A DNA stretch of 64,000 nt from Candidatus Sericytochromatia bacterium (GCA_015272195.1 JACYMC010000023.1:5352-69351); one strand, 5' to 3'. Positions 9,735 through 30,098 are shown, counted from the stretch's first letter. Notes: generated by a model from the sequence alone, not told the origin. Made by a program: numbers and translations.

Positions 9735-9741
9735 TCGCCTC

Positions 9742-10503: not shown

Positions 10504-10505
10504 GA

Positions 10506-11156: not shown

Positions 11157-11159
11157 CGT

Positions 11160-11711: not shown

Positions 11712-11714
11712 GCG

Positions 11715-12878: not shown

Positions 12879-12926
12879 GATAGGGATCCTTTGAAGTTCT
12901 TATTCTGCTTCATATTATTCATCATT

Positions 12927-13865
12927 CTACGAGATTGACTTATTAATATACCACGTCCATACACCATCACCAACACCCCACGATACCAGAGCACCCAGAA
13001 CCAGAAATGGCCCAAATGGAAAGGGCTTGCTTTGTCTGCTCACCAGGAGCAGGCCAAGACCTGCCAAAGCGCCAAGAGTAAAGGCCAATGCCAGTGCAAC
13101 AACCAATTTAGACGGCCCCAGCCAGATACCCAGGAGAATGGCAAGCTTGACATCTCCGCCGCCCATACCCTCTTTACGCAAGAAGATAATGCTAAGCAGC
13201 ATAATCAGCTCAAACAGAGCCCAGACACCCAAACCGGTGGCAAGCGCTAAAAAAAGCGTTCCTTGATATGCATTATAAAGGATCGCAATCAAAATGCTTG
13301 GGTATGTCATCACATTGAAGATAAACTGTGTATCCAAATCAATCCAGAAGATGGTCCACAACACAGCCACCAAAAACAGTGACAGCGGCAACTCAGGGCT
13401 CATGCCGGTCAGCCAGAAGGCATAACAAAACAAAGAGGCTGTCAGGGCCTCAATCAGGGGGTAGCGAAACGAAAACGCCTGTTGGCAGTGTCTGCATTTT
13501 CCTCTGAGCCAGAACCAGCTCAGTACAGGCAGATTATCGTACCATCTGACCGGCTGCTGGCAATGGCCACAGTGTGAGGCAGGAAAAGCAATGCCCTTCA
13601 AAACCAGGACCGACTCCTGCCAGAAATCTTTAAAGCAGTAGGCCACACTGAACCAGATGTCTGAGAGCACGTAGCGCAGTGCCCAGACGACACGGGCGAA
13701 AAAAGCGTCAGGAATACTCTGTTCTTCCTCCAGCTCCTCTTCTGTGCAGTCAGCCAGCAGAATAGCCGGGGTCCGAAAGATGACCACGTTTAAAAAGCTG
13801 CCAATCACCAGCCCAAAAAGAGCCACAAAAAGATAGAGAAACTCGGGGGACAAGACAGAGAGCAT
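12927..13865 (-). CDS. pilD: Prepilin peptidase (A24 family, PilD)
   Basis: Tetracysteine zinc site 'CGHCQQP...CRHCQQ', catalytic region 'GGGDVKL', polytopic membrane protein. Confidence 0.85.
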   Translation of the reverse strand: MLSVLSPEFLYLFVALFGLVIGSFLNVVIFRTPAILLADCTEEELEEEQSIPDAFFARVVWALRYVLSDIWFSVAYCFKDFWQESVLVLKGIAFPASHCGHCQQPVRWYDNLPVLSWFWLRGKCRHCQQAFSFRYPLIEALTASLFCYAFWLTGMSPELPLSLFLVAVLWTIFWIDLDTQFIFNVMTYPSILIAILYNAYQGTLFLALATGLGVWALFELIMLLSIIFLRKEGMGGGDVKLAILLGIWLGPSKLVVALALAFTLGALAGLGLLLVSRQSKPFPFGPFLVLGALVSWGVGDGVWTWYINKSIS

Positions 13866-13923
13866 GCTGCACGTCTTTCTTTCTTAACATCTCTTTACAA
13901 ATTACAGCAAGAAGTGTGGCGGG

Positions 13924-15174: not shown

Positions 15175-15300
15175 AAGCTGTATATTAACCGATTCTCCAG
15201 CCAGACAAAAGTCAGAGGCATTTTCACAATCCCCGCTCAAGAATGCTATCATGCATAAAATCCGAAAACTAAAAATCAAGCACAATCAGGTGAGGTTTTA

Positions 15301-16173
15301 ATGGCTATTCTTCTTGATGCACAAACACGCGTGCTGGTCCAGGGTATTACCGGACGCGATGGTTCTTTTCATACCCAGCAAATGCTGGATTACGGCACAT
15401 CTGTCGTAGCAGGTGTAACCCCTGGCAAAAAAGGTCAGGAAATGGCTGGCGTTCCCGTCTTTAATACGGTTCAGGAAGCAGTGGACGCGACGGCAGCCAA
15501 CTGCTCCATTATTTTTGTCCCCCCCCGTTTTGCCACTGACGCCATTCTGGAAGCTGCTGATGCAAAAATCCCATTGATTATCTGTATCACCGAAGGTGTT
15601 CCTGTCCAGGAAATGATTGGCGCATATCAGTATGTTCAGCAGGCCGGTTGTCGCCTGATTGGGCCAAACTGCCCGGGCCTGATTGCACCCGGTGCAGCCA
15701 AAGTGGGCATCATGCCCGGGCATATTCACAAAGCCGGCAACATCGGCGTGATTTCACGCAGTGGTACGCTGACCTATGAAGTGGTCTACCAGCTGACACA
15801 GGCCGGTATGGGACAGTCTACCTGTGTGGGTATTGGCGGCGATCCGATTATCGGCACCAAATATGTTGATCTGCTGGAACTGTTTGAAGCAGATCCCGAA
15901 ACTGAAGCCATTGTACTGATTGGTGAAATTGGCGGCAACGATGAAGAAGTGGCTGCAGAATACATTGCCAAACATGTCAGCAAACCTGTTGTCAGCTTTA
16001 TTTCTGGCCGCACCGCACCGCCTGGCAAACGCATGGGTCATGCTGGTGCCATTATTTCAGGCAGCAGCGGCACAGCTGAAGCCAAAGTCGAAGCCCTGAA
16101 TGCTGCCGGCGTTCCTGTGGCAGACACACCCGCACAGGTTGTAGGTCTTTTACAGGAGAGGCTAAAAGCCTGA
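15301..16173 (+). CDS. sucD: Succinyl-CoA ligase alpha subunit (CoA-binding, ADP-forming family)
   Basis: 290 aa. '[15 protein letters not shown]', 'GEIGG', phosphohistidine region 'MGHAGAII'. No sucC upstream. Confidence 0.8.
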
Positions 16174-16215
16174 TTTGGATTCAGGGATCGCAACATGCGC
16201 TCGAAAAACTGAGAC

Positions 16216-16644
16216 ATGAAAGCCCCTGAGAACAAACTGTTTAATCTGGTCCCTCATCTGGGTGTTCAGCACATTTTAATCTGGACACCCAGTGAATCCA
16301 GCTTCCGAATCGTCGAACGGATCTTAAACAAGTTGGAGAACATTGAAATACACTGGCACAGCCAGGTCATCGACGCACTGGCCGATGTTTTTATGCGTCG
16401 GCCACCTCTGGTGGTTATTTTTGGTGATACCAACACCGAAAGCCTTGAGTTTGCACGCCTGATCAGAAATCACCAGGACTTTAAAAAAACACCTTTGTTT
16501 ACCATTCTGCCCGAAAACATCAAGCTGCAAACACGCCTGATTAAAAAGCTGGGTATTACAGAAGTCTTTCAGACACCTGTAGAGCCCGGTCGTTTGTTTA
16601 ACCGGACCCGTCAGATTATTTCAGAGTTAGAGACAAGCAGATAA
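16216..16644 (+). CDS. CheY-like receiver-fold protein, degenerate (no obvious DD acidic pocket)
   Basis: 142 aa with receiver-like spacing: 'PLVVIFGDTN', 'TPLFTILPE', 'K...ITEVFQTP'. Confidence 0.35.
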   Translation: MKAPENKLFNLVPHLGVQHILIWTPSESSFRIVERILNKLENIEIHWHSQVIDALADVFMRRPPLVVIFGDTNTESLEFARLIRNHQDFKKTPLFTILPENIKLQTRLIKKLGITEVFQTPVEPGRLFNRTRQIISELETSR

Positions 16645-16655
16645 AGCGATTGGCT

Positions 16656-17552
16656 TTAGCCACCCATCAGTGAGGCACCCATTTCTGGCAGGCGCTGAAT
16701 GCGATCAAGCCCGGCCTGAGCGTTCTCATTATCTGGATCAATCAACAGGATCTGCTGATAGGTTTCCTGGGCTTTTTCAAGATTGCCCTGCTCTTCATAA
16801 AGAATGCCACAGAGCTCATAAACCTGCATGGTTTCAACCCCTGCTTCAAGTGCCCGCTCCAACAAAGGCAAGGCTTCAGCGTGGCGGCCAGTTTCAATAT
16901 AAATAATGCCCAGACGCACCAAAGGGGTTAACAGCTCAGGCTCGTCTTGATGCAAACGCTGAAGCTCACGCTCGGCAGCGTCATAACGCCCCATCCGGCG
17001 GTAAATTTCAGACAGTAAGATTCTGGACTCCTGATGCCTGGGAAACAGGCGCAGCGCATCCAGAACATTGGCCATTGCAGGGTAATGGTCACCCATCTCC
17101 ATATAAATAGAACCCAGCATAAACGCAGCCTGAAAGGTATTGCCATTTAACTTGAGAACACGCTCAAAAGACTGACGGGCTTTTTCAAGGTTTTGGGTCT
17201 GGCCATAAAGAATACCCAGATTGATATGGACATCGATATTCTGAGGATCCAGCTGGGCCGCTTTGGTATAGGTTTGCTCAGCCCTGACCAGATCACCGAG
17301 CATAAACTGGGCGCTGCCAAGGTTAAGATAGGCGTGAAACATGCGGTCGTCGTACTGAATGGCCTTATGAAGGTAATCCAGCGCTTCCTGCAGGCGCTGT
17401 TGTACAAGCGCAATCATACCAAGATTACAACAGGCGGCTGCAGAGCGGGGCTCTGCAGCCAGAACAGACTCAAAAATCGCCTGCGCCGTCTCTAAATCCT
17501 GCTGCTGAAGCGCTTCAACGCCTTCATGAATACGTTGTTGCAAATCAAGCAT
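16656..17552 (-). CDS. TPR repeat protein (last gene of the novel operon)
   Basis: Repeated 34-aa units (A..Y..A....G....A). 5-nt gap from the upstream gene. Confidence 0.7.
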   Translation of the reverse strand: MLDLQQRIHEGVEALQQQDLETAQAIFESVLAAEPRSAAACCNLGMIALVQQRLQEALDYLHKAIQYDDRMFHAYLNLGSAQFMLGDLVRAEQTYTKAAQLDPQNIDVHINLGILYGQTQNLEKARQSFERVLKLNGNTFQAAFMLGSIYMEMGDHYPAMANVLDALRLFPRHQESRILLSEIYRRMGRYDAAERELQRLHQDEPELLTPLVRLGIIYIETGRHAEALPLLERALEAGVETMQVYELCGILYEEQGNLEKAQETYQQILLIDPDNENAQAGLDRIQRLPEMGASLMGG

Positions 17553-17557
17553 AATGG

Positions 17558-18076
17558 TTAGGAAAGTGTACGGTTAAAGGACAGGTCAGTCGCAGACTCC
17601 CCAGCTTTCAAAGCGGTGGGCTTCTGTTCGAGAGACATTTCGCTTTCCTGTTTTTTCTCCTGAACTTTTTTCTGCAGGGCGTTCATGTCTTCTGTCAACT
17701 GCGCCAGAATTTTAGAAAACTCAGCAAAGAGCTCATCGACACTGACAGCATCAGGTGTAGGGGCCAGGTTAATCTGGTCTTCAAGGGCATTGGCCTGGGC
17801 CACCAGCGCACTGACTTTGGAGCTGACCAGGGCAGCGGCCTGCTGCAGATCAACCATCTCGGCATTGGACTGGGGCGGCGCAGAGCTGGCGGCGTTCAAA
17901 ACGCTACCCAGCTGAGCAAAAAGCTGACCGGCAGCACCTGTAGGCTCGGCACTGGGCTGTCCACCACTCTGCTGAGCTGACTGAGCCTGCTGCTGCGAAG
18001 CATTCACCTGTTGCTGAGCCTGGGCCAGGGCATTGGTCGTGTTCACCATTTCTGTCAGTTTACTTAAATCAATCAT
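17558..18076 (-). CDS. Gln/Ala-rich coiled-coil protein
   Basis: 172 aa with heptad-like segments. 13-nt gap from the 1181-aa gene. Confidence 0.45.
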   Translation of the reverse strand: MIDLSKLTEMVNTTNALAQAQQQVNASQQQAQSAQQSGGQPSAEPTGAAGQLFAQLGSVLNAASSAPPQSNAEMVDLQQAAALVSSKVSALVAQANALEDQINLAPTPDAVSVDELFAEFSKILAQLTEDMNALQKKVQEKKQESEMSLEQKPTALKAGESATDLSFNRTLS

Positions 18077-18089
18077 CTTTCGTCCTCCT

Positions 18090-21000
18090 TTAATTGCTAG
18101 CCACTAATTTATCTTGTACCACAGATATACTCTGCTTGGTCTGATCATAAGTCAAGGTCAGCGCACCTTCCAGACTCATGCCGTTGGGCAGACTGGTCTG
18201 ACTGGTGATCGCCAGCTGGTTGAGATTACTCAACAGACCCAGCTTGAAGATATCCCGGTATTTTTCCTGATTCAGAATCCCAATCAAAATTTCCACAAAA
18301 TTGTTGGCCGCCTTATTTGAAGAACCCGTTGTTTCTTTTGAGCTCGACAGCCTGGCAAGTTTGCTTGCGTTATCGTTTTCCACCGACAAAGGCACCATTC
18401 GCGTTTGCCAGCGGCTCTGAACCTTCAGTGTTCCTGGCCTGACAAACTCTGGCGCATATTTGGCTGCAGCCAGGTCATCATAGCCCGTAATCACTTTGGC
18501 ATTGATCAGCGCGTCAACCTCAGGTTCGTTACCCGTACCGGTTGTGACACGGATCCCTTCTCGGTAGTTATTGACACCTGCTGAGTTGATAAATGTCCCG
18601 TCTGAGGCCTGAATCGAAATGGTATTCAGACCTTCCTGCAGATAAGGCGCCATATCAAAGGTGTAATTGACATCACGTATATCGGCAGGGTAAGCGCCGC
18701 CAATAAGCGGAGCCGTTGGCGTCACCAGCACTTCGCGGCCATTAATAAAAATCTTGGGCTGGTCGTTCCCTGTACCATAATGAACCCCTGTCAGGTCAAT
18801 ACTGACATTGAACGCTTTTTTGGTATAGGTCGGACGCACCCGGCCTGTGGCGTCGGTGATCCAGTTGGTCGGGTTCTCCAATTCCAGCAAATCATCTGGC
18901 TTCAGGTGAAAGGTATTGCGGGCCTGGATCACCTGTCGGGGAGAGTTGAGCTTGCCGTAACCCGCAGCTCCGCCCACAACTTCGTCATCGTCATAGCTGT
19001 AAAGCGTGTCTTTGACCAATGGGAACCAGATAAAGCCGTTATCAGGATCACCGGCATTTGTTGTGGCCAGCAGCTCTGACTGGTACCAGTCCGTGGGCAC
19101 GGCATTGGCTGCATTGATCTCCATCACTGACGGTGGCTCAAAGTCAACGATATTGCGACTCATTTCATAAGAGCGCATCACGCCTTCATACTTGCCGATT
19201 TCAAAGCCCCCCAGAATGGGGTTGGCTTTTTTGCTGTCATTGCTGACCACGTTCAGGCCATTAAAGCTATGAATCTTGTGCAGCCCCTGAATAAACTCCC
19301 CGTTAAAGCTGTCGGTCATATTGCCCGTAGAGCGGGAAATACTGTCATTGGGATTATTGGCAGTCGGGTCAGCGTCGGGAACCCAGTCATAGCTTTTGCT
19401 CGCGTCCACCGCATTCGAGCGGGCCAGACCACCATGCACGTACATTTTACCGGTACCGTCACGCTCAATGTCATTAACCGCCGTGGTCAGGTCGTCGACG
19501 TTGGTGCGCTTGTCATTGTTAAACTCCGCTGTGCGGGTTTCTACAATGTAATGGTTAAAGAACAGCGAGCTGGTAATTTGCCCTCTGGCATTCACGCGGG
19601 TCACGTCATCCACAAGCTCGGTCTCATCAACCGTAATATCGGTGTTCAGGCCGCCGCCTGCCTCAGTCGACCGCTCCCCCATATCGACCTTGTGCTTAAA
19701 CACGCTGCCCAGCTGAATATTGGTATCAAAGAGCCGCACGGCACCGCCGCCACCGGCCTGAACTTCAACATCATAGGCCTGATTGGCGGGTGGGGTTCTG
19801 AGAATAGTTCCCTGATACCCACCGGCAGGGTCAAAGACAGGTAAGTTTACCGGGGCGTCAAGTGTTGCCACACCATTAGCATCTATAGCAATAATCGTGC
19901 GTGTTTCATCAATCGCAGGCTGTGGCGGCCCGGTATCCTGAATTCGAATTTGTGTACTTCCGGGCACGAAAGACGGAGGTATTGTGCCTAGCCGAACTTC
20001 AATAAAGTTGGGTGGAGGGCCTGCTTCTGCAGGCGTCACAGTCACAGATGTGGGAATCTGTGACGCCATCTCCAGCAAGGTGACCGGTCCAGACAAGGTG
20101 ACCACACTGCCAGCAATGCTCTGAATCACACGGGTCTGACCATCAATCGTCAGGGTATCACCAGCGCTCATGCCTGCCGTAGAGCCAAGTGTCAACTGAA
20201 TATATTCAGGCGGGTCATTAGGCGCTCCTGCTGCAGCAGAGACTGTCGTGGTGGTATTAATGGTTGATGTTGAGGTAACCTGCCGGGCATGACTCTGATA
20301 CACAATCCCGTTTTCAAGATAGGTACCCACCACATTACCGCCGACACCATTGGTATTGGAAAACAAGCCTTCATAGACATAGGTGCCACTCTGAAAGATC
20401 AGGCCGTCCACAATCTGAACTTCCCCGTCTGATACATCGGCGTTGTTACGCCAGAGGCGTGTACCCACGTCTGTGGCCACAAGATCCTGATTCAGATTAA
20501 GCTCGTTTTTCTGAGACTGGGTTAAACCCGCGGCGTTCCAGCTCTCTGGATCCAGCCAGGCTTTCTGACGGTTGACCACGGTAGTGTAATCCTGGCTGGT
20601 GCCTGAGCGCTCCAACTGATAACCTTCAGTTGGATCCGTGCTGACCCAGGCCACGCGCTGCCCCGCATCATCTCCCGAAAGGGGATAAGTCTGGTTGCGA
20701 CTGTCAGGTACATCCGTCAGATGGACCAGTTCACCGTTGATCAGGTAGTTGTCATTGCCCGCTTCGTCTGAGTTGGCCGTATAACCCACGGCGTAACTGT
20801 ACTGAATCTCACGCGGTGCAAAGTTGTACAGATAGTTGACCGTAGACCAGAAGGCCCCTGTATTAAAAGTGGTTGTTTTCTGTTCCAGCTTCTGGTTGAA
20901 GTAGGTTGGCGGGGGCGGCCCCCCTGTGATCAGAGAGGTAATACCCTGCAAAAACCCAAGAAAGCCTGGAACAGGTGCAGGCTCAGGCGGATCGTCTTCC

Positions 21001-21635
21001 ACGCGCATGGTGACAAAAATATCACCGCTGACATTGCCTGCAGCCGTGGCACTGTCTGTCAGAGAACGAAACTCAACGTTGCGGCTTCCGGCCAGCGCAC
21101 GGCCATAGCCAAAGTAACCATCATCAGCAGCGACAATCCCGTTTAAACCGTCCTGAAGATTGCCAGAATAGCCCACAGGCGCACGCCAGATGTCATTGCC
21201 ATCGTTGTCTGTCCCAAAAACCATGCCACGCTGGTCAGTGGGTCTGACACCCAGGTCTTCAAAGCCCGTCATACCTGCAATGCCTTCAATAATTTGTGCG
21301 TTATCATTGCCGTCCAGCACAACGTCTGCGCGCAGATTGGTTGCAGCACCTTCACCAATTTGCTGGGAGGTGGACACATTGAGCAGATCGGCATAGGCTT
21401 CCTGCAGTTGTTTGGTCAGCTCATTCAGGCGGTTCTGCATTTTGGCGCGATACTGATCGTTAAAAGCCTTTTCCCATTGATAATCGAGAGACGAGCGCAA
21501 CACAAAAGCGGTTTCAAGCGTGGAAGGGGTAAAGCTGCCACCCGCAACCGGCTTACTCGCCAGGCGCAATGTCGGGGATTTATTGCTGGTCAGGTTCATG
21601 GCCTGAGTGCCCACGTTAAATGCAGAAAAGCTCAT
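18090..21635 (-). CDS. Giant protein of unrecognised family (1181 aa); N-terminal helical 'DQYRAKMQNRLNEL' motif shared with operon paralogues; Gly/Thr/Asn/Asp-rich centre
   Basis: Uninterrupted 3.5-kb ORF co-directional with its neighbours. No signal peptide. The internal plus-strand ORFs are short antisense artefacts. Confidence 0.6.
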   Translation of the reverse strand: MSFSAFNVGTQAMNLTSNKSPTLRLASKPVAGGSFTPSTLETAFVLRSSLDYQWEKAFNDQYRAKMQNRLNELTKQLQEAYADLLNVSTSQQIGEGAATNLRADVVLDGNDNAQIIEGIAGMTGFEDLGVRPTDQRGMVFGTDNDGNDIWRAPVGYSGNLQDGLNGIVAADDGYFGYGRALAGSRNVEFRSLTDSATAAGNVSGDIFVTMRVEDDPPEPAPVPGFLGFLQGITSLITGGPPPPTYFNQKLEQKTTTFNTGAFWSTVNYLYNFAPREIQYSYAVGYTANSDEAGNDNYLINGELVHLTDVPDSRNQTYPLSGDDAGQRVAWVSTDPTEGYQLERSGTSQDYTTVVNRQKAWLDPESWNAAGLTQSQKNELNLNQDLVATDVGTRLWRNNADVSDGEVQIVDGLIFQSGTYVYEGLFSNTNGVGGNVVGTYLENGIVYQSHARQVTSTSTINTTTTVSAAAGAPNDPPEYIQLTLGSTAGMSAGDTLTIDGQTRVIQSIAGSVVTLSGPVTLLEMASQIPTSVTVTPAEAGPPPNFIEVRLGTIPPSFVPGSTQIRIQDTGPPQPAIDETRTIIAIDANGVATLDAPVNLPVFDPAGGYQGTILRTPPANQAYDVEVQAGGGGAVRLFDTNIQLGSVFKHKVDMGERSTEAGGGLNTDITVDETELVDDVTRVNARGQITSSLFFNHYIVETRTAEFNNDKRTNVDDLTTAVNDIERDGTGKMYVHGGLARSNAVDASKSYDWVPDADPTANNPNDSISRSTGNMTDSFNGEFIQGLHKIHSFNGLNVVSNDSKKANPILGGFEIGKYEGVMRSYEMSRNIVDFEPPSVMEINAANAVPTDWYQSELLATTNAGDPDNGFIWFPLVKDTLYSYDDDEVVGGAAGYGKLNSPRQVIQARNTFHLKPDDLLELENPTNWITDATGRVRPTYTKKAFNVSIDLTGVHYGTGNDQPKIFINGREVLVTPTAPLIGGAYPADIRDVNYTFDMAPYLQEGLNTISIQASDGTFINSAGVNNYREGIRVTTGTGNEPEVDALINAKVITGYDDLAAAKYAPEFVRPGTLKVQSRWQTRMVPLSVENDNASKLARLSSSKETTGSSNKAANNFVEILIGILNQEKYRDIFKLGLLSNLNQLAITSQTSLPNGMSLEGALTLTYDQTKQSISVVQDKLVASN

Positions 21636-21743
21636 GGGGTATGCTCCTTGGATAGATGTTCACTCGTCTCTTATCCTGCGAGAGGCCTATCTTCTGTCTG
21701 AACTAAAAGAAGTTTTAATATAAAGCCAACACAGAACTAACAA

Positions 21744-21768
21744 GCCCGAACAGTTGTCCTGTTCGGGC
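21744..21768 (-). terminator. Perfect 10-bp stem hairpin (GCCCGAACAG-ttgtc-CTGTTCGGGC) between the two giant genes; candidate partial terminator or attenuator
   Basis: Lies 14 nt downstream of the 1559-aa gene's stop on the transcribed strand. Followed by a T-rich stretch (TTGTTAGTTCTGTGTTGGCTTTATATT). Confidence 0.3.
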
Positions 21769-21781
21769 TGAAGTCGGTCAC

Positions 21782-24700
21782 CTATTTGGCTGGCGTGGCC
21801 GGCGGGCGCTTAAAGGCGTAAAAGGAGCTGAGATAAATCTCCGCCATCGCCCGGTTGGTGTTTTTAAAGACATCATAAGTACCGACCAAGCCGGGTTCAC
21901 GCAGCAGATTCTGGGTTACAGAGGTGCCGTCTGCACGGGTCACAGTGCGCGTCCCTGCAATTTCTTCCTGCCGGCGTTCTTCGTAATCACCAAAATTGAC
22001 CGGCACTGCCGCTGAAGTCGCGGCAGTGCCGATCTGACGAAACTTAATCCGAATCGATGAGGTGACACCGCCGCCTGTGGTCGCATTGGCCGAGGCCGTC
22101 AGGAACATATCGTCCAAAAATCCGTTGTTAAACACGTCGCGGTATTCTCTGACCAGTTGGGCATTGGAGCCATCTGATTTGAGGTGCATATGTTCATAAA
22201 GCACTCTGGTCAGGGGGTTTTCAACCCCGATGGTGCTTTCACCCAGAGCCTGAGTCAGATTGTTCTGGTCAACGCGGGCCAGCAGCATGCGACCGCCCAG
22301 CACAGGCGCCAGCGCCTGGTTGGCTGTGAGATTGATCGCTGTGCTGTCGAGGCCTTTGACATTCAACGTATAATCGTAGCGACGATCATAGTACTTTTGC
22401 CCGCCGTGAAGTTGCAGAATCACGTTACTGCGGCCATCCACATCACCAGTGACCCCCACACGCACGGTGTTTGCGTTGACCGCAGCAGCCCCTTTGGCAG
22501 TGGCGTCCGCTGCGTTAATAAAGGTGCCAAAGTATTTATCGTGATAGTAGCCTGTCCGGAAGCTCTGCAGATTCAGGGGGGATGCACCATCATAATTGCG
22601 ACCCACAATGCGGCCATGCGAGCCCACATAGCGATCAATATGGGTGGTAACATTGGGCGTCAGACCACTGAGACCCTCACTCACCGCACCGTTATAGTCC
22701 ACCACATTTTTACGCACATAAACTTCGTTGATATCGCCCATGCCCGTATCGTCCCAGAAACCACGTTTGATATCCCAGTTGTCATCATAACGAGTGGTAT
22801 CACCCTCATGACGACTCAGCTCATGGGCTCTGCGGCCATCGATGCCAAAGGCGGCGCCATAACCCTGGCGGCCGGCAGCGCCGTCAACACCAGTTAAGAA
22901 GGGTTTATAACGACGGGTATTGGCCATACCGTTAAGCACCTGGTTAGGCAATTCAAAGGAACCCGTGCCCCACTGGGCCAGCGCACCGATAGCGCCCAGC
23001 TGACCGCCGTCGCGGGTGGTATTGTAGTCATAAGCAAACAGTTTTTTCTCGTCTTCAATAAAGTCATAACCTTCGGCTGTCAGACTGCTGCTGCTGATGC
23101 GATCGGAGGTCACAAAACCTCTTTCATTCTGATCGCGCAGCAGCAGATCCCACATCATGTTTTCATTCAATTGCTGCTGATAAGAGGACAGCATCAGGTC
23201 CAGCACGCTCAATACCACAGCCCAGCCCATACTGGGCGGGCCCGCATTCAGCCTGCCCGCAGCCGCGAAAATGGCTTTGTTGAGAAACTTCATGATCTCT
23301 TTGCCCGTGAGGGCCAGCATCCGCAGGGTATCCATATTGGCGATTTCTTCGTTCTGGTGCGTGCCAGTCCAGTAAGAATAACTCAGATCATTGAGCTGAA
23401 ACTGCGACAGAAAGGCTGCTGTCGAGAAGAATGCACCCGTATCCAGCTCACGGGCTTCGCCCGCATTCATACTATGACGCTGTTCACCACCAAAGACTCC
23501 ATCTTCGCGTAAATTATAATCATTGATAGTATATGAGTTGATACCCAATAAACCCTTGGCCTGATCCAGAAAACCGCCTAAATCAAAAATGCCAATGAGC
23601 TCGGGCATTTTTTGAAGGGTGGACCAGGCTGTTTTTTCGGTAAAGTGGTATTCACCGCGCATGCCATAGCTGTCCATGGCATAACCACCGCTGGTGGCAT
23701 AAGAATAGGCCGAAACGCTATCGATCACCTCATGCTTCATGGCATCCAGAAATTCATGCATATAATCCGTCAGAATATCGTAAGAAGCGGCACCATATGT
23801 GGTCATGGGCAGGTTCAAAAAGAACACACCCGCCATGGGAATGGGAATCGGAATCGGGATGTTAAGATCTGCGTGAAAGCCTCCGATCCCGACGTTGGGG
23901 AAGTAACTGATATCGTCCTTACTGGCGCCACCAATATTGGCCAGAATCCCCAATGACAGGTTCATGGCCTGAAGGGCGGGACCAATATCCCCCCCCTGAC
24001 CGCCGGAGTTATCCATCAGGTCCTCTACCTTGCCAATCGTACCAATGGCTGAAGTGTGGCCCCAGTAAATGCCGCCAACCCCGGCACCAATGGCTGTGCC
24101 GCTGAAACTGTAAGCCGTCGAGGTGCCGTCCAGGTCAACAATCCCCTTGGAGTCAGAGCCGCCGCCCACATGAAAGAAAGGGCCGCCCAGCAGGTTATTG
24201 GCCACATCGTCCAGACGACCCAGCGCCAGACCGGTTGCAATCGCTTGCAGGGCAAAGCCTTCGATCGGCGGAGAAAGGGTCATGGCTGAGATCATTGAGC
24301 TGCTTTTGGCGTAAGGGTCATACCACAAAACAGGCGAAACCTTAAGATGCGAGGAGATGGTCTCAGCATCATATTTGACTGGCGCAATGTCTTTTGTGCC
24401 CGGTGTGGCGGTTTCAGCACCTCCGGGCACAAAACCCGGCGCGTAGTCCCATTGACGTCCCACAAAAAGATTGCTGATCACATCCATGGTGTTGCCACCA
24501 AAGGCGCTTTTGGTGGTATCAACCAAATCGTCTGTACCGTTATCATCATTTACATCCGGCTGGCCATTGGACTCAGCTGCACCTACAGGAATAGGTACAT
24601 AAAGTTTAGAATCACCAATACTTGTGCGCGGGGTTGGCGGTGGCGGCGCCGGCGGGCCAGGCGTGCTGACCGGGGGCAAAGCCGGTGGCGCAGGAACACT

Positions 24701-26461
24701 GCCGACCGGGTCTGCCATCATTTCGAGACGCTTATTGAGAATCGAATAAATACTGGCTTCTGAACTGGGGGTTTTGGGACTGCTATAGTCTGCACCAACC
24801 TGGTATACAGAGTTGATGGTACCCTCAAAGGTACTGGGTGGCGTGTAGTAATAGCCATAGGGAACCATACCGCTGATAGGGCTGACGTTGTCCAGATAAT
24901 TACTCGGGGCATCAGGATGTGGGTTGACTGGCGGCAGCGGAGGGGTACCGGGCGGATAGTTACTGGGCGGGGAGGTAGGCGCTGTCACCGAGCCTTTGGC
25001 CAGCTGGTCAATGCCTGAGAACACCTGGTCCATAATCTGATCATAGGTATAGTCAGGATTCTTTGCTTTGATGTCACCCGCATTATCCACATACGCTTTA
25101 TAAGCAGCTTCTATCTGCGCTTCACGCTTCTGGATCTGACGGGCCTCATACCAGGAGTCTAGAAAACCCTGCTGATAAGGCGGCAAATGCCCTTTGCTGG
25201 CATTAAAATCCTGTTCATCCAGGGTCGCGCCCAAAGGCTGGGCCAGCTTGGGATTCAGCGTGATGCCGCCGACCGTACCGGAGCCATAAGGAAACGAGCC
25301 TGGATCCGGTGCAAACAGACGCTGATTAGACACACCTGGATCAGGGTCAACAAAGCGAATGCCGTTGTTTAAGGTGTAAATACCGCTGCCAGGCGATGTT
25401 TCAGTAAAGTCGCCATTCGTCATGCCATGACCACCTGCTACAATGGCGTCGCGCTGGGCTGTTGTAAATTGCATGGTCGTTGGATTGCTGTTACTCGTAA
25501 TAAAAGTCGGCAACAGAGCAAAATCCGTTGATGTCATGCCATTAAAGGTTTCAATATAATAACGGTTACTGGCATTGGAACGCACAAAGTTACGGGTATC
25601 TGTCGAGGGCGGCACGTTCATGTTCTTGGCAATTTCTTCAAACCAGGCGTTGCTGTTAACGCCGGGGTCATTCAGATCGTAAGCGTAAGGGGATGGGACT
25701 GGTCCTGCATTGGTGCGCCAGAGGTCATAATACTGGTTGTCAGCAGCACCGTCGCTGGTCACATAGCCCGTGCTGTCAACAGGTGCTTTGTAGTGAGGCC
25801 CCTTAAAAGTGGGGTAGGCCACAGGATCATCTGCTGGTATCAGGCTGCCATTAATTTGAACTTCTGCAGTACCGTCCCCGTCCATATCCTGAAGAGGGGC
25901 CTGGCTGTTGATGTAGCGGCGAATATCGTTGTAAGCATCACTTGTACCGCCATACGCCTGCTTATCGGGGCCGAACCAGTCCGGGTGGGCGTACAGATTG
26001 TTGTCTATTTCTTCCACTTCGTTGGGCGGGTTGTCAATCACGGCACCTGAATAAAAAGCCAGGGGCGTTTCGGCGCTGATATCATTGCGATCGCGGTTGG
26101 CATTGGGCGCCCAGCGTTCGTCGGGGCGCATGGGCGCATAGATACTGTTTTCAAGGGTGCGCACATAAGCCCGGTTCAGCTTTTTTTTGAGTGCTTCAGC
26201 GCGCAGGCTCAAAACGGCACGGTACTCGTTATACCAGGTCTGGGCAAAGCTGTTCTGGGCATCGCGGTCATAGGTGGTCTGATACTCGCCAGAGGTGAGC
26301 TGAAACATGCCCTGGGTACGGTTTTCGAGCCGTAAAAAATTGCCATTGGGACTGGCATAATTCGACAGGACAGCCTGCAAGCCCTGGCCAATATCCCGCT
26401 GACCGCCTCCCAGAAAATCTCTGAAAGACTGTCCTGAACTTCCAAGCTGCCCGATTGACAT
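21782..26461 (-). CDS. Giant protein of unrecognised family (1559 aa); N-terminal 'YNEYRAVLSLRAEAL' and C-terminal 'AEIYLSSFYAF' motifs shared with the tandem paralogues; Pro-rich 'PPPTPRT' and 'PIPIPIP' segments
   Basis: Uninterrupted 4.7-kb ORF, no signal peptide, Gly/Asn/Thr/Tyr-rich. Confidence 0.6.
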   Translation of the reverse strand: MSIGQLGSSGQSFRDFLGGGQRDIGQGLQAVLSNYASPNGNFLRLENRTQGMFQLTSGEYQTTYDRDAQNSFAQTWYNEYRAVLSLRAEALKKKLNRAYVRTLENSIYAPMRPDERWAPNANRDRNDISAETPLAFYSGAVIDNPPNEVEEIDNNLYAHPDWFGPDKQAYGGTSDAYNDIRRYINSQAPLQDMDGDGTAEVQINGSLIPADDPVAYPTFKGPHYKAPVDSTGYVTSDGAADNQYYDLWRTNAGPVPSPYAYDLNDPGVNSNAWFEEIAKNMNVPPSTDTRNFVRSNASNRYYIETFNGMTSTDFALLPTFITSNSNPTTMQFTTAQRDAIVAGGHGMTNGDFTETSPGSGIYTLNNGIRFVDPDPGVSNQRLFAPDPGSFPYGSGTVGGITLNPKLAQPLGATLDEQDFNASKGHLPPYQQGFLDSWYEARQIQKREAQIEAAYKAYVDNAGDIKAKNPDYTYDQIMDQVFSGIDQLAKGSVTAPTSPPSNYPPGTPPLPPVNPHPDAPSNYLDNVSPISGMVPYGYYYTPPSTFEGTINSVYQVGADYSSPKTPSSEASIYSILNKRLEMMADPVGSVPAPPALPPVSTPGPPAPPPPTPRTSIGDSKLYVPIPVGAAESNGQPDVNDDNGTDDLVDTTKSAFGGNTMDVISNLFVGRQWDYAPGFVPGGAETATPGTKDIAPVKYDAETISSHLKVSPVLWYDPYAKSSSMISAMTLSPPIEGFALQAIATGLALGRLDDVANNLLGGPFFHVGGGSDSKGIVDLDGTSTAYSFSGTAIGAGVGGIYWGHTSAIGTIGKVEDLMDNSGGQGGDIGPALQAMNLSLGILANIGGASKDDISYFPNVGIGGFHADLNIPIPIPIPMAGVFFLNLPMTTYGAASYDILTDYMHEFLDAMKHEVIDSVSAYSYATSGGYAMDSYGMRGEYHFTEKTAWSTLQKMPELIGIFDLGGFLDQAKGLLGINSYTINDYNLREDGVFGGEQRHSMNAGEARELDTGAFFSTAAFLSQFQLNDLSYSYWTGTHQNEEIANMDTLRMLALTGKEIMKFLNKAIFAAAGRLNAGPPSMGWAVVLSVLDLMLSSYQQQLNENMMWDLLLRDQNERGFVTSDRISSSSLTAEGYDFIEDEKKLFAYDYNTTRDGGQLGAIGALAQWGTGSFELPNQVLNGMANTRRYKPFLTGVDGAAGRQGYGAAFGIDGRRAHELSRHEGDTTRYDDNWDIKRGFWDDTGMGDINEVYVRKNVVDYNGAVSEGLSGLTPNVTTHIDRYVGSHGRIVGRNYDGASPLNLQSFRTGYYHDKYFGTFINAADATAKGAAAVNANTVRVGVTGDVDGRSNVILQLHGGQKYYDRRYDYTLNVKGLDSTAINLTANQALAPVLGGRMLLARVDQNNLTQALGESTIGVENPLTRVLYEHMHLKSDGSNAQLVREYRDVFNNGFLDDMFLTASANATTGGGVTSSIRIKFRQIGTAATSAAVPVNFGDYEERRQEEIAGTRTVTRADGTSVTQNLLREPGLVGTYDVFKNTNRAMAEIYLSSFYAFKRPPATPAK

Positions 26462-26493
26462 AAAATAAGCTCCTTTGTCTTAAGTTTCCAGCG

Positions 26494-27669
26494 CTAGCAA
26501 TGATAAAAGGCGCTGAAGCGATCGATTGAAAGATTGATGCGTCCCCCCAGATCTGGACGATCAGGGTTTTCCGGAACGAAGTTAAGAAACACACTGGCCT
26601 GGGCCTGAGAGCCCGAAGGTAGGGAGGAAGTTGATGCCACCTGCATATCACTGAAGAAGCCGTTTTTCTCAGACAAACGAAAAATATCGCGCAGCAAATT
26701 ACGCTGATCTAACTCATAAATGGCATCATACAGCACCTTTTGAAACTGATTTTTAGCCCGGCCTGTCGCATTAAAAGCTTCATAGCTTTGGGTCTCATTG
26801 ACCCAGTCCAGATTATTCATGTTTCCTGTATCAGCAGCTCCAGCCACGTTTTGAGGCAGGTTATTATTGGTATAGACAATGTTCTGGGCATTAGAACGGT
26901 AGTTAGGGATGGAGGGGGCTGGCGGAGTATTTGCCACATCAATAAAACGATAGCGGTTCTGATGGGAGATAAAACCGCCACCCACTTCGCGATAAGCCAC
27001 AGTACGCCCCCCATGATTCACTTCAAGGGAGTCGATCAAGCCTTCGGTTTCGGCTTCCATATGAAAAGACTGCTGAATAGTAGCCGTACCAAAAACACGC
27101 ACAGTGGCTTCATCGCCATTGCCTGCACCCAGACTGCGAAAGAAAATCGCATCGGCGGAAGCGTCCGGGGTGACGCGATTCCTCCCATCAAAGTGGGGTA
27201 CTCCGACATAAGGTTCAGAAGTTACAGAGCCCCCGGCAGGGTTGACCCCCTGGGCATAACCCGTCATAAAGTTATAGGCCACACGGGCAGCACCAGCATC
27301 CTGCAAACGATCGGTAAATCCCTGAGAAGCGGAACGATCATTCCAGGCCGCACGGGTTCCTTCTAAAGCTGTATCCAGGTCACGCGTCAAAGCAGCCGTC
27401 AAATCAGTAATCAACTGCTGAATTCGTGAGCGCAGCAGAGCCTGGTATTCAAACAGAAAGACGGTACTGTTGTCGTTTTTTTGATCTTGCTGCATCAGCA
27501 CATTCAAATAGGAGCTGGTGTAATCCAAAAAGCTGGAGGCTGTATCGGGATTGGCCAACTGCCGATATCTATCCAGATTGCTGGACATATCCGCCAGTTT
27601 AAACGAGGTGGGGTCCTGTTGAAACTGCTGTTGCATATTGTTGCTGCCCAGACCAAAGGTAAACGTCAT
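26494..27669 (-). CDS. Paralogue A (391 aa) of the conserved-termini family
   Basis: Shares 'VFLFEYQALLRSRIQQLITDLTAALTRDLD', 'DAGAARVAYNFMTGY', 'KNQFQKVLYDAI', 'SSLPSGSQAQASVFLNF' and '...FSAFYHC' with the adjacent 332-aa protein. Confidence 0.6.
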   Translation of the reverse strand: MTFTFGLGSNNMQQQFQQDPTSFKLADMSSNLDRYRQLANPDTASSFLDYTSSYLNVLMQQDQKNDNSTVFLFEYQALLRSRIQQLITDLTAALTRDLDTALEGTRAAWNDRSASQGFTDRLQDAGAARVAYNFMTGYAQGVNPAGGSVTSEPYVGVPHFDGRNRVTPDASADAIFFRSLGAGNGDEATVRVFGTATIQQSFHMEAETEGLIDSLEVNHGGRTVAYREVGGGFISHQNRYRFIDVANTPPAPSIPNYRSNAQNIVYTNNNLPQNVAGAADTGNMNNLDWVNETQSYEAFNATGRAKNQFQKVLYDAIYELDQRNLLRDIFRLSEKNGFFSDMQVASTSSLPSGSQAQASVFLNFVPENPDRPDLGGRINLSIDRFSAFYHC

Positions 27670-27730
27670 ATAAAAGACTCCTGCATCGTCATTGATTCAA
27701 AGCACTGCCTGTCATGTGGATGTGCGTTGC

Positions 27731-28729
27731 TTAGCCCGAAGCATAATAGGCCGTCATCTTATCGAGAGAAATATGGAGGTTACCGCCATCCTGGGCACCT
27801 TCAAAACTCAGATTAAAGCTTGCCTGGACCTGTGATCCCGTGGGTAGACTCGAGCTGGCAGCCACGACCAGATTTTTAAACAGGCCTGAACTCAGCACCG
27901 CTCGGTATTCAACACTTGAGACCGCATCAAATAAAACTTTCTGAAACAAATTCTTGGCATTTCGTGCACGGGCACCTGCACCAAGTGGCCCGCTGAAACT
28001 ATTATCCAGAACATTGTGATCGGCTGTAGGCGCTGCGTCATCCGCATTTGTATTTGTATAAATAAAAGTGGGGGCCGCACCGCGCAAGTCACCAATTTGA
28101 AGCGTGTCAATCACCCGACTGTTACCGTTTGCGGGCAAGGGGCCAACAGTGACCAGCGTTGCCGTACCTGCAGCTCTCAGCGTGGGTGTGCCCCCACCAT
28201 AAGCGACACCTTCAAAAGTACCGTCAAAACCTTCTGCCTGCTGGACAGAGCCAGGCACAGGCGGCGGCCCAGGAACGAAGGCGCTGCCTGTTAAAGCGGG
28301 TGTGGCACCGGCAGACACGGTGGAAGAGCTCATCCAGCCCATCATAAAGTTATAAGCTGTACGGGCCGCACCGGCATCTGCAACTGTGGGCGTTGAGAGA
28401 CCGTTCATGGCGGGTTTGGGCGTACCGCCCCAGCGTGGGTTGGCCGCACTCATCGCCACATCCAGATCAGAGGCCAGGGCGTTGCTGAGCTGGGCAATCA
28501 GGGTCTGAATACGGGAATTCAGCAGGGCACGGTATTCAAACAGGAAGATCAGGTTGTCGTCATTCTGCTTATCGGTTTCTTCTTTTTTGAGGATTGCGCG
28601 GCTGGTAGGGTTCCAGACAAAGCCACTTGAGACACTGGCCATGCCCGTTGCCGTTGTGGTCAGACGCTGATTGTGCACATCGGCAGTTGTGAGCTTGACG
28701 CCCAGTTGCACGTTGCCAATTCCGGCCAT
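27731..28729 (-). CDS. Paralogue B (332 aa) of the conserved-termini family
   Basis: 'LIFLFEYRALLNSRIQTLIAQLSNALASDLD', 'DAGAARTAYNFMMGW', 'KNLFQKVLFDAV', 'SSLPTGSQVQASFNLSF', '...MTAYYASG'. The middle region is divergent. Confidence 0.6.
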   Translation of the reverse strand: MAGIGNVQLGVKLTTADVHNQRLTTTATGMASVSSGFVWNPTSRAILKKEETDKQNDDNLIFLFEYRALLNSRIQTLIAQLSNALASDLDVAMSAANPRWGGTPKPAMNGLSTPTVADAGAARTAYNFMMGWMSSSTVSAGATPALTGSAFVPGPPPVPGSVQQAEGFDGTFEGVAYGGGTPTLRAAGTATLVTVGPLPANGNSRVIDTLQIGDLRGAAPTFIYTNTNADDAAPTADHNVLDNSFSGPLGAGARARNAKNLFQKVLFDAVSSVEYRAVLSSGLFKNLVVAASSSLPTGSQVQASFNLSFEGAQDGGNLHISLDKMTAYYASG

Positions 28730-28786
28730 AATTTTATATTCTCCTGTTTAAATATCTTGTCTATCTCAAAGGACAACGCCCTGAAA

Positions 28787-29455
28787 TCAGGTGTTGTTAC
28801 GGTAAGCTGCAGAACCATTAACGGTTGTATCGTAATGAAACATGCGACTGATGGATCCGACTGAGCCCCAGTTATAAAACGAAGCATAGTTAATGGTCGA
28901 ACCATCCTGACGGTTATAAAAGCGCTGATCCGTCCAGCGAGGCGTAAAGGAATCACGATACATAATCGCACCACGACCACCCATGGCCGAGCCTTCTTCG
29001 GCGCCATCAAAAAACTCGCCATTGCCGGTAAAGCCTGCCTGAACAGTCCACTGCGCAAAAGTAGCAGCAACAGCACGCCATTGCAACTGAGCCTCCTGAC
29101 GCTTGAGAATAAATTCCGTGATGGACCGGATCACGTCGATAATATCGCGCGTATCGGTTTTACTGAGGACTGCTAGAAAGGTACTGACCGCTGAAGAAAC
29201 GAGTTTCATGCCGCCTCCCGCCGTCATCTCAGCCAGAGAGCCCTGGGCATCCACCTTTTTGCGGATTTCTGCAGCCAAAGCATTGGCGGCCTGAAAGCGC
29301 GACTGGATCAGCTGCTCAGCGTTATCCTGACCTTTGATGATATTCTGGCCCAGCGCTTGATTTACCGAGTTAAAAAAGCTCGGGATCTTTTCTTTGACGT
29401 CTTCCTTGGAGCGAGCCGCCAGAGCATCTGAGCGCATTGCTTGGATTGCGGGCAT
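28787..29455 (-). CDS. Hypothetical protein (222 aa), part of the novel operon
   Basis: Helical N-half, Gly/aromatic-rich C-half ('FYNRQDGSTINYASFYNWGS'). Co-directional with short gaps to its neighbours. Confidence 0.45.
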   Translation of the reverse strand: MPAIQAMRSDALAARSKEDVKEKIPSFFNSVNQALGQNIIKGQDNAEQLIQSRFQAANALAAEIRKKVDAQGSLAEMTAGGGMKLVSSAVSTFLAVLSKTDTRDIIDVIRSITEFILKRQEAQLQWRAVAATFAQWTVQAGFTGNGEFFDGAEEGSAMGGRGAIMYRDSFTPRWTDQRFYNRQDGSTINYASFYNWGSVGSISRMFHYDTTVNGSAAYRNNT

Positions 29456-29475
29456 AAAACAAACCTCTTATAGAA

Positions 29476-29949
29476 TTAGATAAAGGGGTTGGCATTCAAT
29501 GCCTGTACCGCTTTATCAGAGCCAACGCGCATGATATTCAGGCGCTTCATATCTTCTTCAACCGCTTCAAGTTCAGCATTGGCTTTGCTGATATCGAGCA
29601 GCTTGGTGATCACGTTACCGACACCATTCACAATATCGGCCCAGCCGGACTTTTTGCTGTCACCGCTCGGACGGGTGCTGTTGACGACCGTGCCCAGCAG
29701 AGACACCACAGCCGCTGCGGCAGCAATTTTAGCCGCTTTTTTACTTGCATCAGCAGCAATTTCTTTAAATCTGAGGTCAGCCGCTTTGAGATCAAGATCA
29801 GCTTTTTCTTCGGCGCGCGCGTCCTTTTCGGCCATCACACTGGTGGTGATCAGGTTGTTGTTGCGCAGCATGCGCTGTTGTTCAACAGCAGTCAGCCCAA
29901 GTTCTGAAACAGCGCGGGTCATGTTTCCGGCAGAAGCCCATGCAGTCAT
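29476..29949 (-). CDS. Hypothetical coiled-coil protein with a central hydrophobic (possibly TM) segment; first gene of the novel operon
   Basis: 157 aa. 'KKAAKIAAAAAVVSLLGTVVN' hydrophobic stretch. An AAGGAAG Shine-Dalgarno sits about 10 nt upstream of the ATG. Confidence 0.45.
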   Translation of the reverse strand: MTAWASAGNMTRAVSELGLTAVEQQRMLRNNNLITTSVMAEKDARAEEKADLDLKAADLRFKEIAADASKKAAKIAAAAAVVSLLGTVVNSTRPSGDSKKSGWADIVNGVGNVITKLLDISKANAELEAVEEDMKRLNIMRVGSDKAVQALNANPFI

Positions 29950-30098
29950 AATTCAATACTTCCTTTACAATGAGATGAAGACTCGTTACTTATCTGTGCA
30001 GGGGTCTTTCGGCTGAAGCCATTTAATTCTGGCTTAACATAAAAAACACAGAAAAAAACTTTTTTTTAAAACATTAAGTCTGCGCAGGACCTGATTCA

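Follow-up and report, generated by a model that had tools for sequence, protein, structure and literature searches.

What do the eight genes make that run on the minus strand between positions 16656 and 29949 of a 64,000-nucleotide stretch of DNA from Candidatus Sericytochromatia bacterium (GCA_015272195.1 JACYMC010000023.1:5352-69351; the whole stretch is hereafter called the window)? The Sericytochromatia are an uncultured, non-photosynthetic sister class of the Cyanobacteria, and their cell biology is almost undescribed. An earlier note, made from the sequence alone, had pointed to this ~13-kb cluster as a candidate for an undescribed filament or macromolecular assembly system. We found that four of the encoded proteins, two small and two giant, appear to be built around the same terminal pieces, and that the cluster is kept as a unit in related genomes. 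Our preferred answer, which we hold tentatively and at a chance somewhat short of even, is that the cluster builds one extracytoplasmic, probably cell-surface, multi-protein structure, as judged from sequence and by analogy with known assemblies.

The listing of open reading frames (ORFs) returned the eight co-directional genes with the coordinates and lengths given in the earlier note, and we call them g1 to g8. Four of them, g3 (27731..28729, 332 aa), g4 (26494..27669, 391 aa), g5 (21782..26461, 1559 aa) and g6 (18090..21635, 1181 aa), have in common a bipartite terminal module, as established by profile comparisons and predicted structures. The common plan consists of a disordered, conserved N-terminus, a predicted helix of ~50 residues (the N-helix) and a C-terminal module of two helices and three strands (the C-module), and variable domains of ~150 to 1,300 residues lie between these conserved ends. 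In the giant g5, the N-helix is placed at residues ~56-109 and the C-module at ~1420-1485, followed by a tail of ~80 aa. The signature motifs of the module are FLFEYxALLxSR... and ...SSLxTGSQxQAS...DRFSAFYHS-COOH. In the g4 family, the first residues, MAFTFGLGS, with their alternation of hydrophobic residues, are nearly invariant and are disordered in the model.

The two small proteins, g3 and g4, are clear paralogues, as the earlier note had proposed (BLASTP E=1e-36, 32% identity). Their link to the giants was traced through both ends. The last ~70 residues of g4 matched the C-terminus of g6 (BLASTP E=5e-4; hhalign of the family profiles E=1.4e-4) as well as a near-C-terminal segment of g5 (BLASTP E=2e-3). 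The N-helix region of g5 was aligned with that of g4 (hhalign of alignments A1 and A6, E=7.8e-4, residues 51-104 of g4 against 56-109 of g5) and with that of g6 (A3 against A6, E=1.2e-4, at colinear N-terminal positions), and the g5 orthologue P0122 was matched in a library-wide search through the N-helix alone (E=5e-4). When sub-profiles of the N-helix and C-module were compared with 3,115 ORFs from the window and the related loci, g3 was recovered at E values of 1e-34 and 3e-22, respectively, and the giants of the window, L001 and L006 took the ranks directly below the small paralogues and were matched where expected; in the N-helix search, one unrelated ORF fell among the two weakest giant matches. 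AlphaFold2 models of g4 and g6 have matching terminal topology, with a helix of ~52 residues (52-103 in g4, 39-90 in g6) and the two helices and three strands of the C-module at 308-388 and 1112-1180, and in g4 the C-module has a predicted local distance difference test (pLDDT) score of 85-91. Taken together, the links between small proteins and giants are consistent and colinear. The shared terminal motifs named in the earlier note are therefore real, on the strength of three profile-profile links (E 1e-4 to 8e-4), the sub-profile searches and an identical predicted secondary-structure topology.

By their conservation profiles, these proteins vary least at the termini, and nearly all insertions and deletions (indels) fall in the middles. 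Conserved termini around a variable, indel-rich middle are the pattern of surface-exposed polymer subunits, and the same division is seen in g4, the most widespread member of the family. The most distant relatives, P0117-P0121, are only ~20% identical to g4 (alignment A2), and what they keep is the N-helix and the extreme C-terminus, which reads "...F(S/T)A(F/Y)(Y/W)HS". The C-module tolerates a large loop insertion, since a subset of g4 orthologues (P0008, P0010, P0018, P0021, P0022, P0027, P0028, P0036, P0040, P0041, P0045 and P0046) carry an extra 60-100 residues between its last two beta strands (A1 columns ~560-660). There is also an insertion of ~170 residues in g6 (residues ~450-620; 19776-20286, minus strand), which is present in the window protein and its closest relatives only and absent from ~90% of orthologues. 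A beta-rich structure is predicted for it, and it weakly matches a PHROG annotated 'major head protein' (E=0.002). By eye, this insertion resembles the one near the C-terminus of some g4 orthologues, an equivalence to which BLASTP and Pfam give no support and which we rejected.

We looked for conservation of the cluster as a unit across related genomes and found it. A search of 5.8 billion proteins returned 54 homologues of g4 and 38 of g6, all unannotated, and the named ones belong to Sericytochromatia, Blackallbacteria, "Melainabacteria HGW" and metagenome-assembled genomes (MAGs) labelled Obscuribacterales. The profile hidden Markov model of g3/g4 found only 38 proteins among 1.84 billion cluster representatives. 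Among 185,579 species-representative genomes, which were scanned with alignment A1 (A2 has no stretch conserved enough to search with), there are only 10 matching loci, all in Sericytochromatia, Blackallbacteria or UBA7694, and further copies occur in MAG and metagenome contigs. A metagenome scan for the most distant subgroup (P0119/P0120) gave only the contig already known. All loci of Sericytochromatia and Blackallbacteria that are long enough to judge have the same eight genes in one order, between uvrA and sucD, with typical orthologue sizes from g1 to g8 of ~162, 213, 325, 395-534, 1473-1677, 935-1046, 170 and 299 aa. The length of g5 is strongly conserved, as intact orthologues are mostly of 1549-1589 aa within a range of 1473-1677. 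Because they are conserved in the 10 species-representative genomes and in more MAG and metagenome contigs, comparison of the sequences identifies the eight ORFs as real genes. The g6 protein itself is 100% identical to the NCBI entry 'hypothetical protein IGS03_01690 [Candidatus Sericytochromatia bacterium]'.

Inside the class, identities of 41-61% show that the cluster proteins evolve faster than the neighbouring housekeeping genes (70-88%), as seen in uvrA (74-77%), sucD (84-88%) and PilM (70-78%); g8, at 57-71%, is the most conserved member. A divergent form of the cluster is found on L006 (a 5.18-Mb contig, G+C content 0.41) and L021, where g1 to g6 correspond gene for gene at 27-31% identity. 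For the smaller proteins, identity falls from 41-52% in Sericytochromatia to 31% in L006 for g1 and from 51-64% in the class to 27% in L006 for g2, and g7 (47-53% in the class) has no match in L006 and is apparently missing from the gene list of L022. The cluster is thus restricted to Sericytochromatia, Blackallbacteria and a few unplaced metagenomic lineages, and at least one lineage outside the class has it in the divergent form.

The amino acid composition of the proteins is as unusual as their architecture. The seven proteins other than g8, which is a tetratricopeptide repeat (TPR) protein, contain one cysteine in 4,014 residues, as compared to 1.24% in 21 other proteins of the window (binomial P~8e-21), and orthologues of the giants have no cysteine except in one or two genomes; g5 has none, and g3 is also free of it. 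The residues G, S, T, N and Y make up 34-36% of g3-g6 (36% in g3), as compared to 22.7+/-3.8% elsewhere in the window, with asparagine ~3 standard deviations above the window mean, and the four proteins are acidic, with isoelectric points (pI) of 4.5-5.6. A cysteine-poor, acidic composition rich in these residues is typical of flagellins, S-layer proteins and substrates of type I or type III secretion. The giants had been described as low-complexity and apparently poor in cysteine; the compositional bias and the scarcity of cysteine hold, whereas the proteins are not repetitive, as their length is conserved and no tandem repeats were found, so 'low-complexity' overstates the bias.

Three paralogous genes for enzymes combining TPRs with a glycosyltransferase of family GT41 (O-GlcNAc-transferase or HMW1C-like) lie in the window at 33058-35073, 35070-37121 and 58193-60373, all on the minus strand; two of them sit just beyond uvrA as seen from the cluster, and a similar gene flanks uvrA in L001 and L010. 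Glycosylation of the cluster proteins by these enzymes was considered and set aside, as none of the eight proteins has an excess of N-X-S/T sequons (z -1.5 to +1.5).

The remaining four genes encode smaller proteins. The first, g1 (29476..29949, 157 aa), is Ala-rich and cysteine-free, and its N-terminal half is coiled-coil-like, in agreement with the earlier note; the transmembrane segment that the note had added came down, in a hydropathy scan, to one hydrophobic stretch, Ala-rich and borderline (residues ~71-89). The g2 product (28787..29455, 222 aa) is a conserved basic protein with a pI of 8.9. At the other end of the cluster, g7 (17558..18076, 172 aa) encodes an acidic, cysteine-free protein of coiled-coil type, rich in Ala, Gln and Ser, and its Ala and Gln contents (17% and 13%) are in keeping with the Q/A-rich protein seen before. 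The last gene, g8 (16656..17552, 298 aa), encodes a cytoplasmic protein with ~7 repeats, without a signal peptide, with three cysteines and of ordinary composition. Its assignment as a TPR protein was upheld by Pfam (TPR_2, E=6e-43). The best NCBIfam scores were all under the cut-off (MamA, NF040959, 160.4 against 200 bits; LcrH/SycD, TIGR02552, 55.4 against 104.8 bits), so we regard g8 as a generic TPR protein, and no mam genes are present in the 64-kb window.

The genes are closely spaced and an AGGAG-type ribosome-binding site is clear for seven of the eight. From g1 to g8, the gaps are 20, 57, 61, 32, 146, 13 and 5 nt; the range of 5-60 nt stated earlier fails at the junction of the two giants, where the gap is 146 nt. 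There, 12 nt after the g5 stop, a terminator scan and RNA folding predicted an intrinsic-terminator-like hairpin (21743..21769, minus strand; 11-bp stem with 7 GC pairs). Between it and g6, a promoter- or operator-like element, TTCAGACAGAAG-N15-GATAAGAGACGAGT, lies at 21662..21702 on the minus strand, with its 3' end 26 nt upstream of the g6 ATG, and the other copy, TTCAGCCGAAAG-N11-GATAAGTAACGAGT, lies at 29981..30017 on the same strand, with its 3' end 31 nt upstream of the g1 ATG. The core GATAAGNNACGAGT has exactly two sites in 64 kb, on either strand and with one mismatch allowed, as compared to 0.08 expected, and the longer pattern TTCAGNCNNAAG-N-GATAAG hits the same two sites only.

Because of the hairpin between g5 and g6 and the same element before g1 and g6, the single tightly coupled operon of the earlier note has to be replaced by two co-directional units, g1-g5 and g6-g8, with an intrinsic terminator between them and a common promoter or operator element, an arrangement read from the nucleotide sequence and its conservation. 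Orthologous loci each have their own, different GC hairpin and T-run at the g5/g6 junction, followed by conserved sequence blocks; the element blocks are conserved in the g5/g6 gap (alignment A4) and upstream of g1, and, of 19 loci, 12 have a single match to a relaxed motif, which in each case precedes g1 or g6. As both units are preceded by the same element, they are probably switched on together. The junction is also a hot spot of insertion, where foreign genes were found in two lineages, namely a class Ib aminoacyl-tRNA synthetase gene in Blackallbacteria (L002/L003, 16013-17059, plus strand) and a Methyltransf_28 gene on the opposite strand in L022 (14647-15783, minus strand).

Known relatives were sought in Pfam, NCBIfam, PHROGs, PADLOC and the sequences of PDB chains, the last with single sequences and with family profiles, and the Pfam scans took in all 36 members of the g6 family and six g5 orthologues. 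In line with the lack of recognisable motifs reported before, g1-g5 and g7 gave matches at noise level at best, and g6 did likewise in the same libraries except for a weak jelly-roll signal and the one weak PHROG match. No Pfam or PDB signal was obtained for g5 with the window protein, the six orthologues or the family profile. Domains of RHS/YD, toxin and tail-fibre type were absent by Pfam, PHROGs and PADLOC; SLH, autotransporter beta-barrel and Big- or cadherin-type repeat domains had no match in Pfam or NCBIfam, and PDB held no sequence relatives. We thus looked for, and did not find, a clear relationship of the large proteins to adhesins, S-layer proteins, tail fibres or RHS proteins, which would have spoken against an undescribed assembly; the weak signal in g6 was all that emerged. 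PADLOC gave nothing of note, and a defence system was rejected on this ground. Rfam has nothing in or around the cluster. At the level of folds, the moderately confident g4 model had no detectable match in the PDB or viral (BFVD) libraries, and the g6 model matched no PDB chain at Foldseek E<=0.001. One apparent family member, P0115 (a 762-aa 'predicted lipoprotein' from JGI), was matched by positions 199-253 of the g3/g4 profile at E=1e-18; it carries eight near-identical repeats of ~95 residues, and we judged the match to be probably spurious and amplified by the repeats.

The cluster therefore contains three protein families without relatives of known function or structure. We rate it as falling outside every known kind of system at the level of family and fold, because the tests for flagellar axial proteins, pilins, RTX/type I substrates, RHS and tail-fibre proteins, known S-layer and adhesin domains and type III TPR chaperones came out negative, and because searches of the accessible literature on Sericytochromatia (motility, pili, flagella, culture and microscopy) turned up neither the cluster nor any description of a surface structure for the class. 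What kind of structure the products would form is put forward as a hypothesis.

The weak signal in g6 concerns the sole confident region of its model, residues ~900-1100. The top Foldseek matches are jelly-rolls of a rhamnosidase, a GH2 enzyme and a CBM35 (probability 0.94-0.98, E 0.019-0.14), and Pfam Bac_rhamnosid_N and Glyco_hydro_2_N appear, weakly and under the cut-off, in 5 of 36 g6 orthologues, with the best E value, 6e-4, in an orthologue. The weak Pfam matches at residues 962-1026 agree with the region found by Foldseek. Sequence and structure are in this respect concordant with the galactose-binding-like and carbohydrate-binding-module jelly-rolls; on the other side, the scores lie under the family cut-offs, the catalytic domains are absent, and the likeness covers only ~10% of g6. 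It is possible that residues ~940-1080 of g6 form a jelly-roll domain of sugar-binding type.

How could these parts work together? In the surface structure that we tentatively favour, the shared end-pieces would be a common docking or polymerisation core, with the inserted domains facing outward. The tandem proteins g3 and g4 would be repeating subunits (g3 minor, g4 major), and in the lattice or fibre that they make, the giants g5 and g6 would take specialised places at the base or tip or in adhesion, with g6 displaying a beta-sandwich of sugar-binding type. Being small and partly hydrophobic, g1 and g2 might anchor or nucleate the structure at the membrane, whereas the coiled-coil g7 and the TPR protein g8 might prevent premature assembly of the subunits ahead of export, in the manner of chaperones of flagella and type III secretion. 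The points that we count for a surface structure are the conserved gene order, the shared termini, the variable middles, the cysteine-poor composition, the fast evolution, the domain signal in g6 and the co-regulation. Filament formation, self-assembly and export we infer from design and composition, by analogy. A bolder version, in which the cluster encodes a previously unknown self-assembling extracellular appendage, similar in plan to flagella or pili and independently invented, with paralogous subunits of 300 to 1,600 residues, terminal modules of a new fold and export without a Sec signal or the known dedicated systems, appears rather unlikely to us.

Several observations weigh against a single surface structure. 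Taken singly, the matches that tie the small proteins to the giants are weak (hhalign probabilities of 25-55%, sub-profile E values from 0.001 to 5.0), the g6 model is of low confidence (pLDDT 51, predicted template modelling score 0.42), and its jelly-roll matches are not significant by E value (>=0.019). Direct reading and a hydropathy scan found no Sec, Tat, lipoprotein or prepilin N-terminus in any of the eight proteins, and no dedicated secretion ATPase, secretion channel or flagellar gene is present in the cluster or in the 64-kb window, the rest of which is housekeeping. The divergent relatives add to this list. In the L006 cluster, the depletion of cysteine is relaxed, with 0-6 cysteines per protein, and unrelated genes take the place of g7 and g8 in L006 and L021; as these two are missing from L006, the proposed chaperones are not universal. 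In L020, the most distant locus, one family member follows three small cysteine-free proteins, and the giants are absent nearby.

Among known assemblies, the pili built by donor-strand exchange (chaperone-usher pili and the type V pili of Bacteroidia) offer a parallel for the docking of subunits. As in these systems, the genes of major, minor and large tip-type subunits lie together, and a short terminus of alternating hydrophobic residues, MAFTFGLGS, is unstructured in the model and is found with an open three-stranded terminal sheet. That this strand might pair with the terminal sheet of a neighbour, as in strand exchange, is only an idea suggested by the models. The cluster differs in that signal peptides, an usher, a periplasmic chaperone, a lipoprotein-type processing site and an Ig-like pilin fold, for which we found no match, are all absent.

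An alternative that we hold plausible, at a lower chance, is that the products act individually as secreted or surface proteins, such as adhesins or effectors of attachment or predation. The termini would then be a secretion or anchoring signal for an unknown exporter, g1 and g2 a membrane gate, and g7 and g8 cognate chaperones. The composition, the depletion of cysteine and the missing signal peptides fit equally well here, as does a g6 protein with a probable sugar-binding domain, and the extreme termini are nearly invariant even at ~20% identity, as expected of recognition signals. The proteins resemble type I-secreted surface and S-layer proteins (e.g., RsaA, SwmA and the RTX adhesins) in being large, acidic, cysteine-free, rich in Gly, Thr, Asn and Asp, lineage-specific and fast-evolving, without an N-terminal signal peptide and with an important C-terminal region. 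They differ from them in that RTX/HemolysinCabind repeats of the nonapeptide GGxGxD (no Pfam match in the cluster proteins or the scanned orthologues) and known S-layer domains are absent, and type I substrates have no counterpart to the strongly conserved N-terminal helix of the cluster.

A candidate exporter is seen in one locus. In L006, genes for a MacA-like adaptor, an ABC ATPase, a MacB/FtsX permease, a TolC-like outer-membrane efflux protein and a 271-aa lipoprotein lie directly upstream of the divergent cluster on the same strand (2172-7833, plus strand), and this MacAB/TolC-type set is a possible export link for that cluster. None is found next to the Sericytochromatia clusters, so that the trio of ATP-binding cassette protein, membrane fusion protein and TolC, on which type I systems depend, is not conserved with them. 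The terminal modules are, moreover, predicted to be folded, unlike disordered signals, and the tandem, flagellin-sized g3 and g4 with their hypervariable centres look more like repeating subunits.

The logic of type III translocators and their chaperones was weighed in the same connection. A cytoplasmic all-TPR protein at the operon end, together with small, partly hydrophobic coiled-coil proteins, recalls the class II chaperones LcrH/SycD and IpgC, with the limit that g8 has generic TPR matches only. Proteins of the LcrH/SycD class are about 160 aa long, with three TPRs, and lie next to translocator genes in an injectisome locus; in contrast, g8 is twice as long, and injectisome genes are absent.

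It is improbable, in our estimation, that nothing is exported and that the four paralogues form an intracellular or inner-membrane-associated scaffold of cytoskeleton- or organelle-like kind, with the TPR and coiled-coil proteins as assembly factors. The lack of signal peptides and of secretion machinery in the cluster and window speaks for such a scaffold, as does the fact that the most conserved member is the cytoplasmic TPR protein, and long helices with coiled-coil partners are compatible with cytoskeletal proteins. However, the avoidance of cysteine and the acidic composition rich in Asn, Thr, Ser and Gly are unlike those of the 21 other window proteins and g8, the middles are fast-evolving and indel-rich, and a sugar-binding-type domain is unexpected inside the cell.

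The surroundings of the cluster raise the question of a link to type IV pili. On one side, uvrA (30157) diverges from g1, and on the other, the order below g8 is a 142-aa ORF and sucD (both on the other strand), a methyltransferase, a prepilin peptidase, PilM, PilN, PilO, a 253-aa gene and a secretin, with the prepilin peptidase/PilMNO/secretin cluster beginning ~2.8 kb below g8; both the divergence from uvrA and the distance to the pilus genes agree with the earlier note. The pilus block itself (8115-15285, minus strand), which starts with a Methyltransf_23/14 methyltransferase, contains no pilin or ATPase genes. Products of the cluster that serve the adjacent pilus machinery as accessories or cargo, for example as non-canonical adhesins in a role like that of PilY1 or PilC, seem decidedly improbable to us. 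The order of cluster, sucD, methyltransferase, PilD, PilM, PilN, PilO, a 241-aa gene and secretin is conserved and co-directional in the window, L018 and L019, where g6 identity is 43-52%, and this would fit such a role. However, uvrA and sucD are kept in the same way, and in L006 and L021 the cluster has no adjacent pil genes, so the proximity is class-wide synteny and not evidence of a functional link. The GATAAG..ACGAGT element is absent near the pil genes of the window, and the cluster proteins have neither a class III prepilin signal, which is a short basic leader ending in Gly followed by a hydrophobic helix of ~20 residues with Glu5, nor a Pfam or NCBIfam match to pilin or PilY1 families.

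In design, the closest known counterparts are the flagellar axial proteins (FliC, FlgE and FlgK/FlgL), which likewise are paralogues of very unequal size with shared termini and inserted variable, surface-type domains, a disordered N-terminus, no cleavable signal peptide and almost no cysteine, encoded alongside small chaperone-like proteins. N-termini such as MSFSAF.. and MAFTFGLG.. add to the impression. A flagellar origin of the cluster proteins, as highly diverged flagellins, hook proteins or hook-associated proteins with export through a type III system of flagellar kind, is nevertheless highly improbable and largely refuted, as the cluster fails in profile, C-terminal helix, fold and gene context. 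Flagellin_N/Flagellin_C, Flg_bb_rod and Flg_bbr_C had no Pfam or NCBIfam match at E<=1 in the proteins or their orthologues, in a library that does detect PF22692 in the flagellar-like protein P0124. The comparison of the terminal helices with flagellar D0 domains that the earlier note had proposed was negative; the cluster proteins do not have the C-terminal D0 alpha-helix that pairs with the N-terminal one. Genes of flagellar type III export are absent from the 64-kb window and from +/-10 kb around 19 related loci.

P0124, which could be taken to favour the flagellar origin, is an orphan FlgE/F/G-like protein (456 aa, PF22692) with a C-terminal helix of axial type, and its gene, paired with that of a 566-aa lipoprotein, lies beside the divergent L006 cluster. 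The pair (L017 8219-11371, plus strand, equal to L006 20078-21089, minus strand) converges on this cluster from its downstream side. There are no other flagellar genes within 10 kb of it, and a search for close homologues of P0124 in 5.8 billion proteins returned only the query itself.

Finally, G+C content is 0.49-0.53 over window positions 10000-30000, which hold the pilus genes and the cluster, as compared to 0.57-0.63 over most of the remainder, and orthologous loci have an overall value of 0.47-0.54. A phage-derived or mobile module (tailocin, tail-fibre cassette or polymorphic toxin island) would account for this lower G+C over 10-30 kb, for giant fast-evolving proteins and for the weak head-protein match in the g6 insertion, but it has next to no probability and is largely refuted, with 0 relatives among 2.9 million viral contigs, no BFVD fold match, nothing of note in PHROG or PADLOC, no tRNA, integrase or other mobility signature near the cluster, a uvrA-sucD position that is fixed across the class, and a G+C dip that takes in the pil genes too and agrees with the AT-rich codons of Asn, Thr, Ser and Tyr.

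Two further genes of the window were recorded in passing. The 142-aa ORF (16216-16644, plus strand), downstream of sucD, has no family match, and an ORF of 139 aa occupies the same place in L001, L004, L018 and L019. An FtsZ-family protein of 313 aa (2315-3256, plus strand) has Tubulin GTPase and FtsZ_C domains; as FtsZ_C ends at residue 307, there is little or no C-terminal linker or tail.

Conserved operons of this dark kind are common in uncultured lineages, and the present one, in a lineage of evolutionary importance, is defined unusually well as a candidate cell-surface machine of a new kind, through a shared-module architecture that takes in two giants, the extreme avoidance of cysteine, a dedicated cis element and the lack of any known fold in the moderately confident g4 model. 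Every sampled member of the Sericytochromatia spends ~13 kb on the cluster, giants of 1,000-1,600 residues are under selection for length and sequence, and, of the eight products, seven are without a match to anything whose function or structure is known. Even if the mechanism proposed here is wrong, what remains for study is a set of three new protein families, a bipartite terminal module that is defined by signature motifs, and a cis element specific to the cluster, GATAAG..ACGAGT, with which other members of the regulon could be sought. Should the products indeed make up a structure on the cell surface, bacteria would have in it an appendage or coat of a new type, made of proteins with new folds and possibly served by a new way to get large proteins out of a diderm cell, and it would provide a handle on how Sericytochromatia attach, move or feed.

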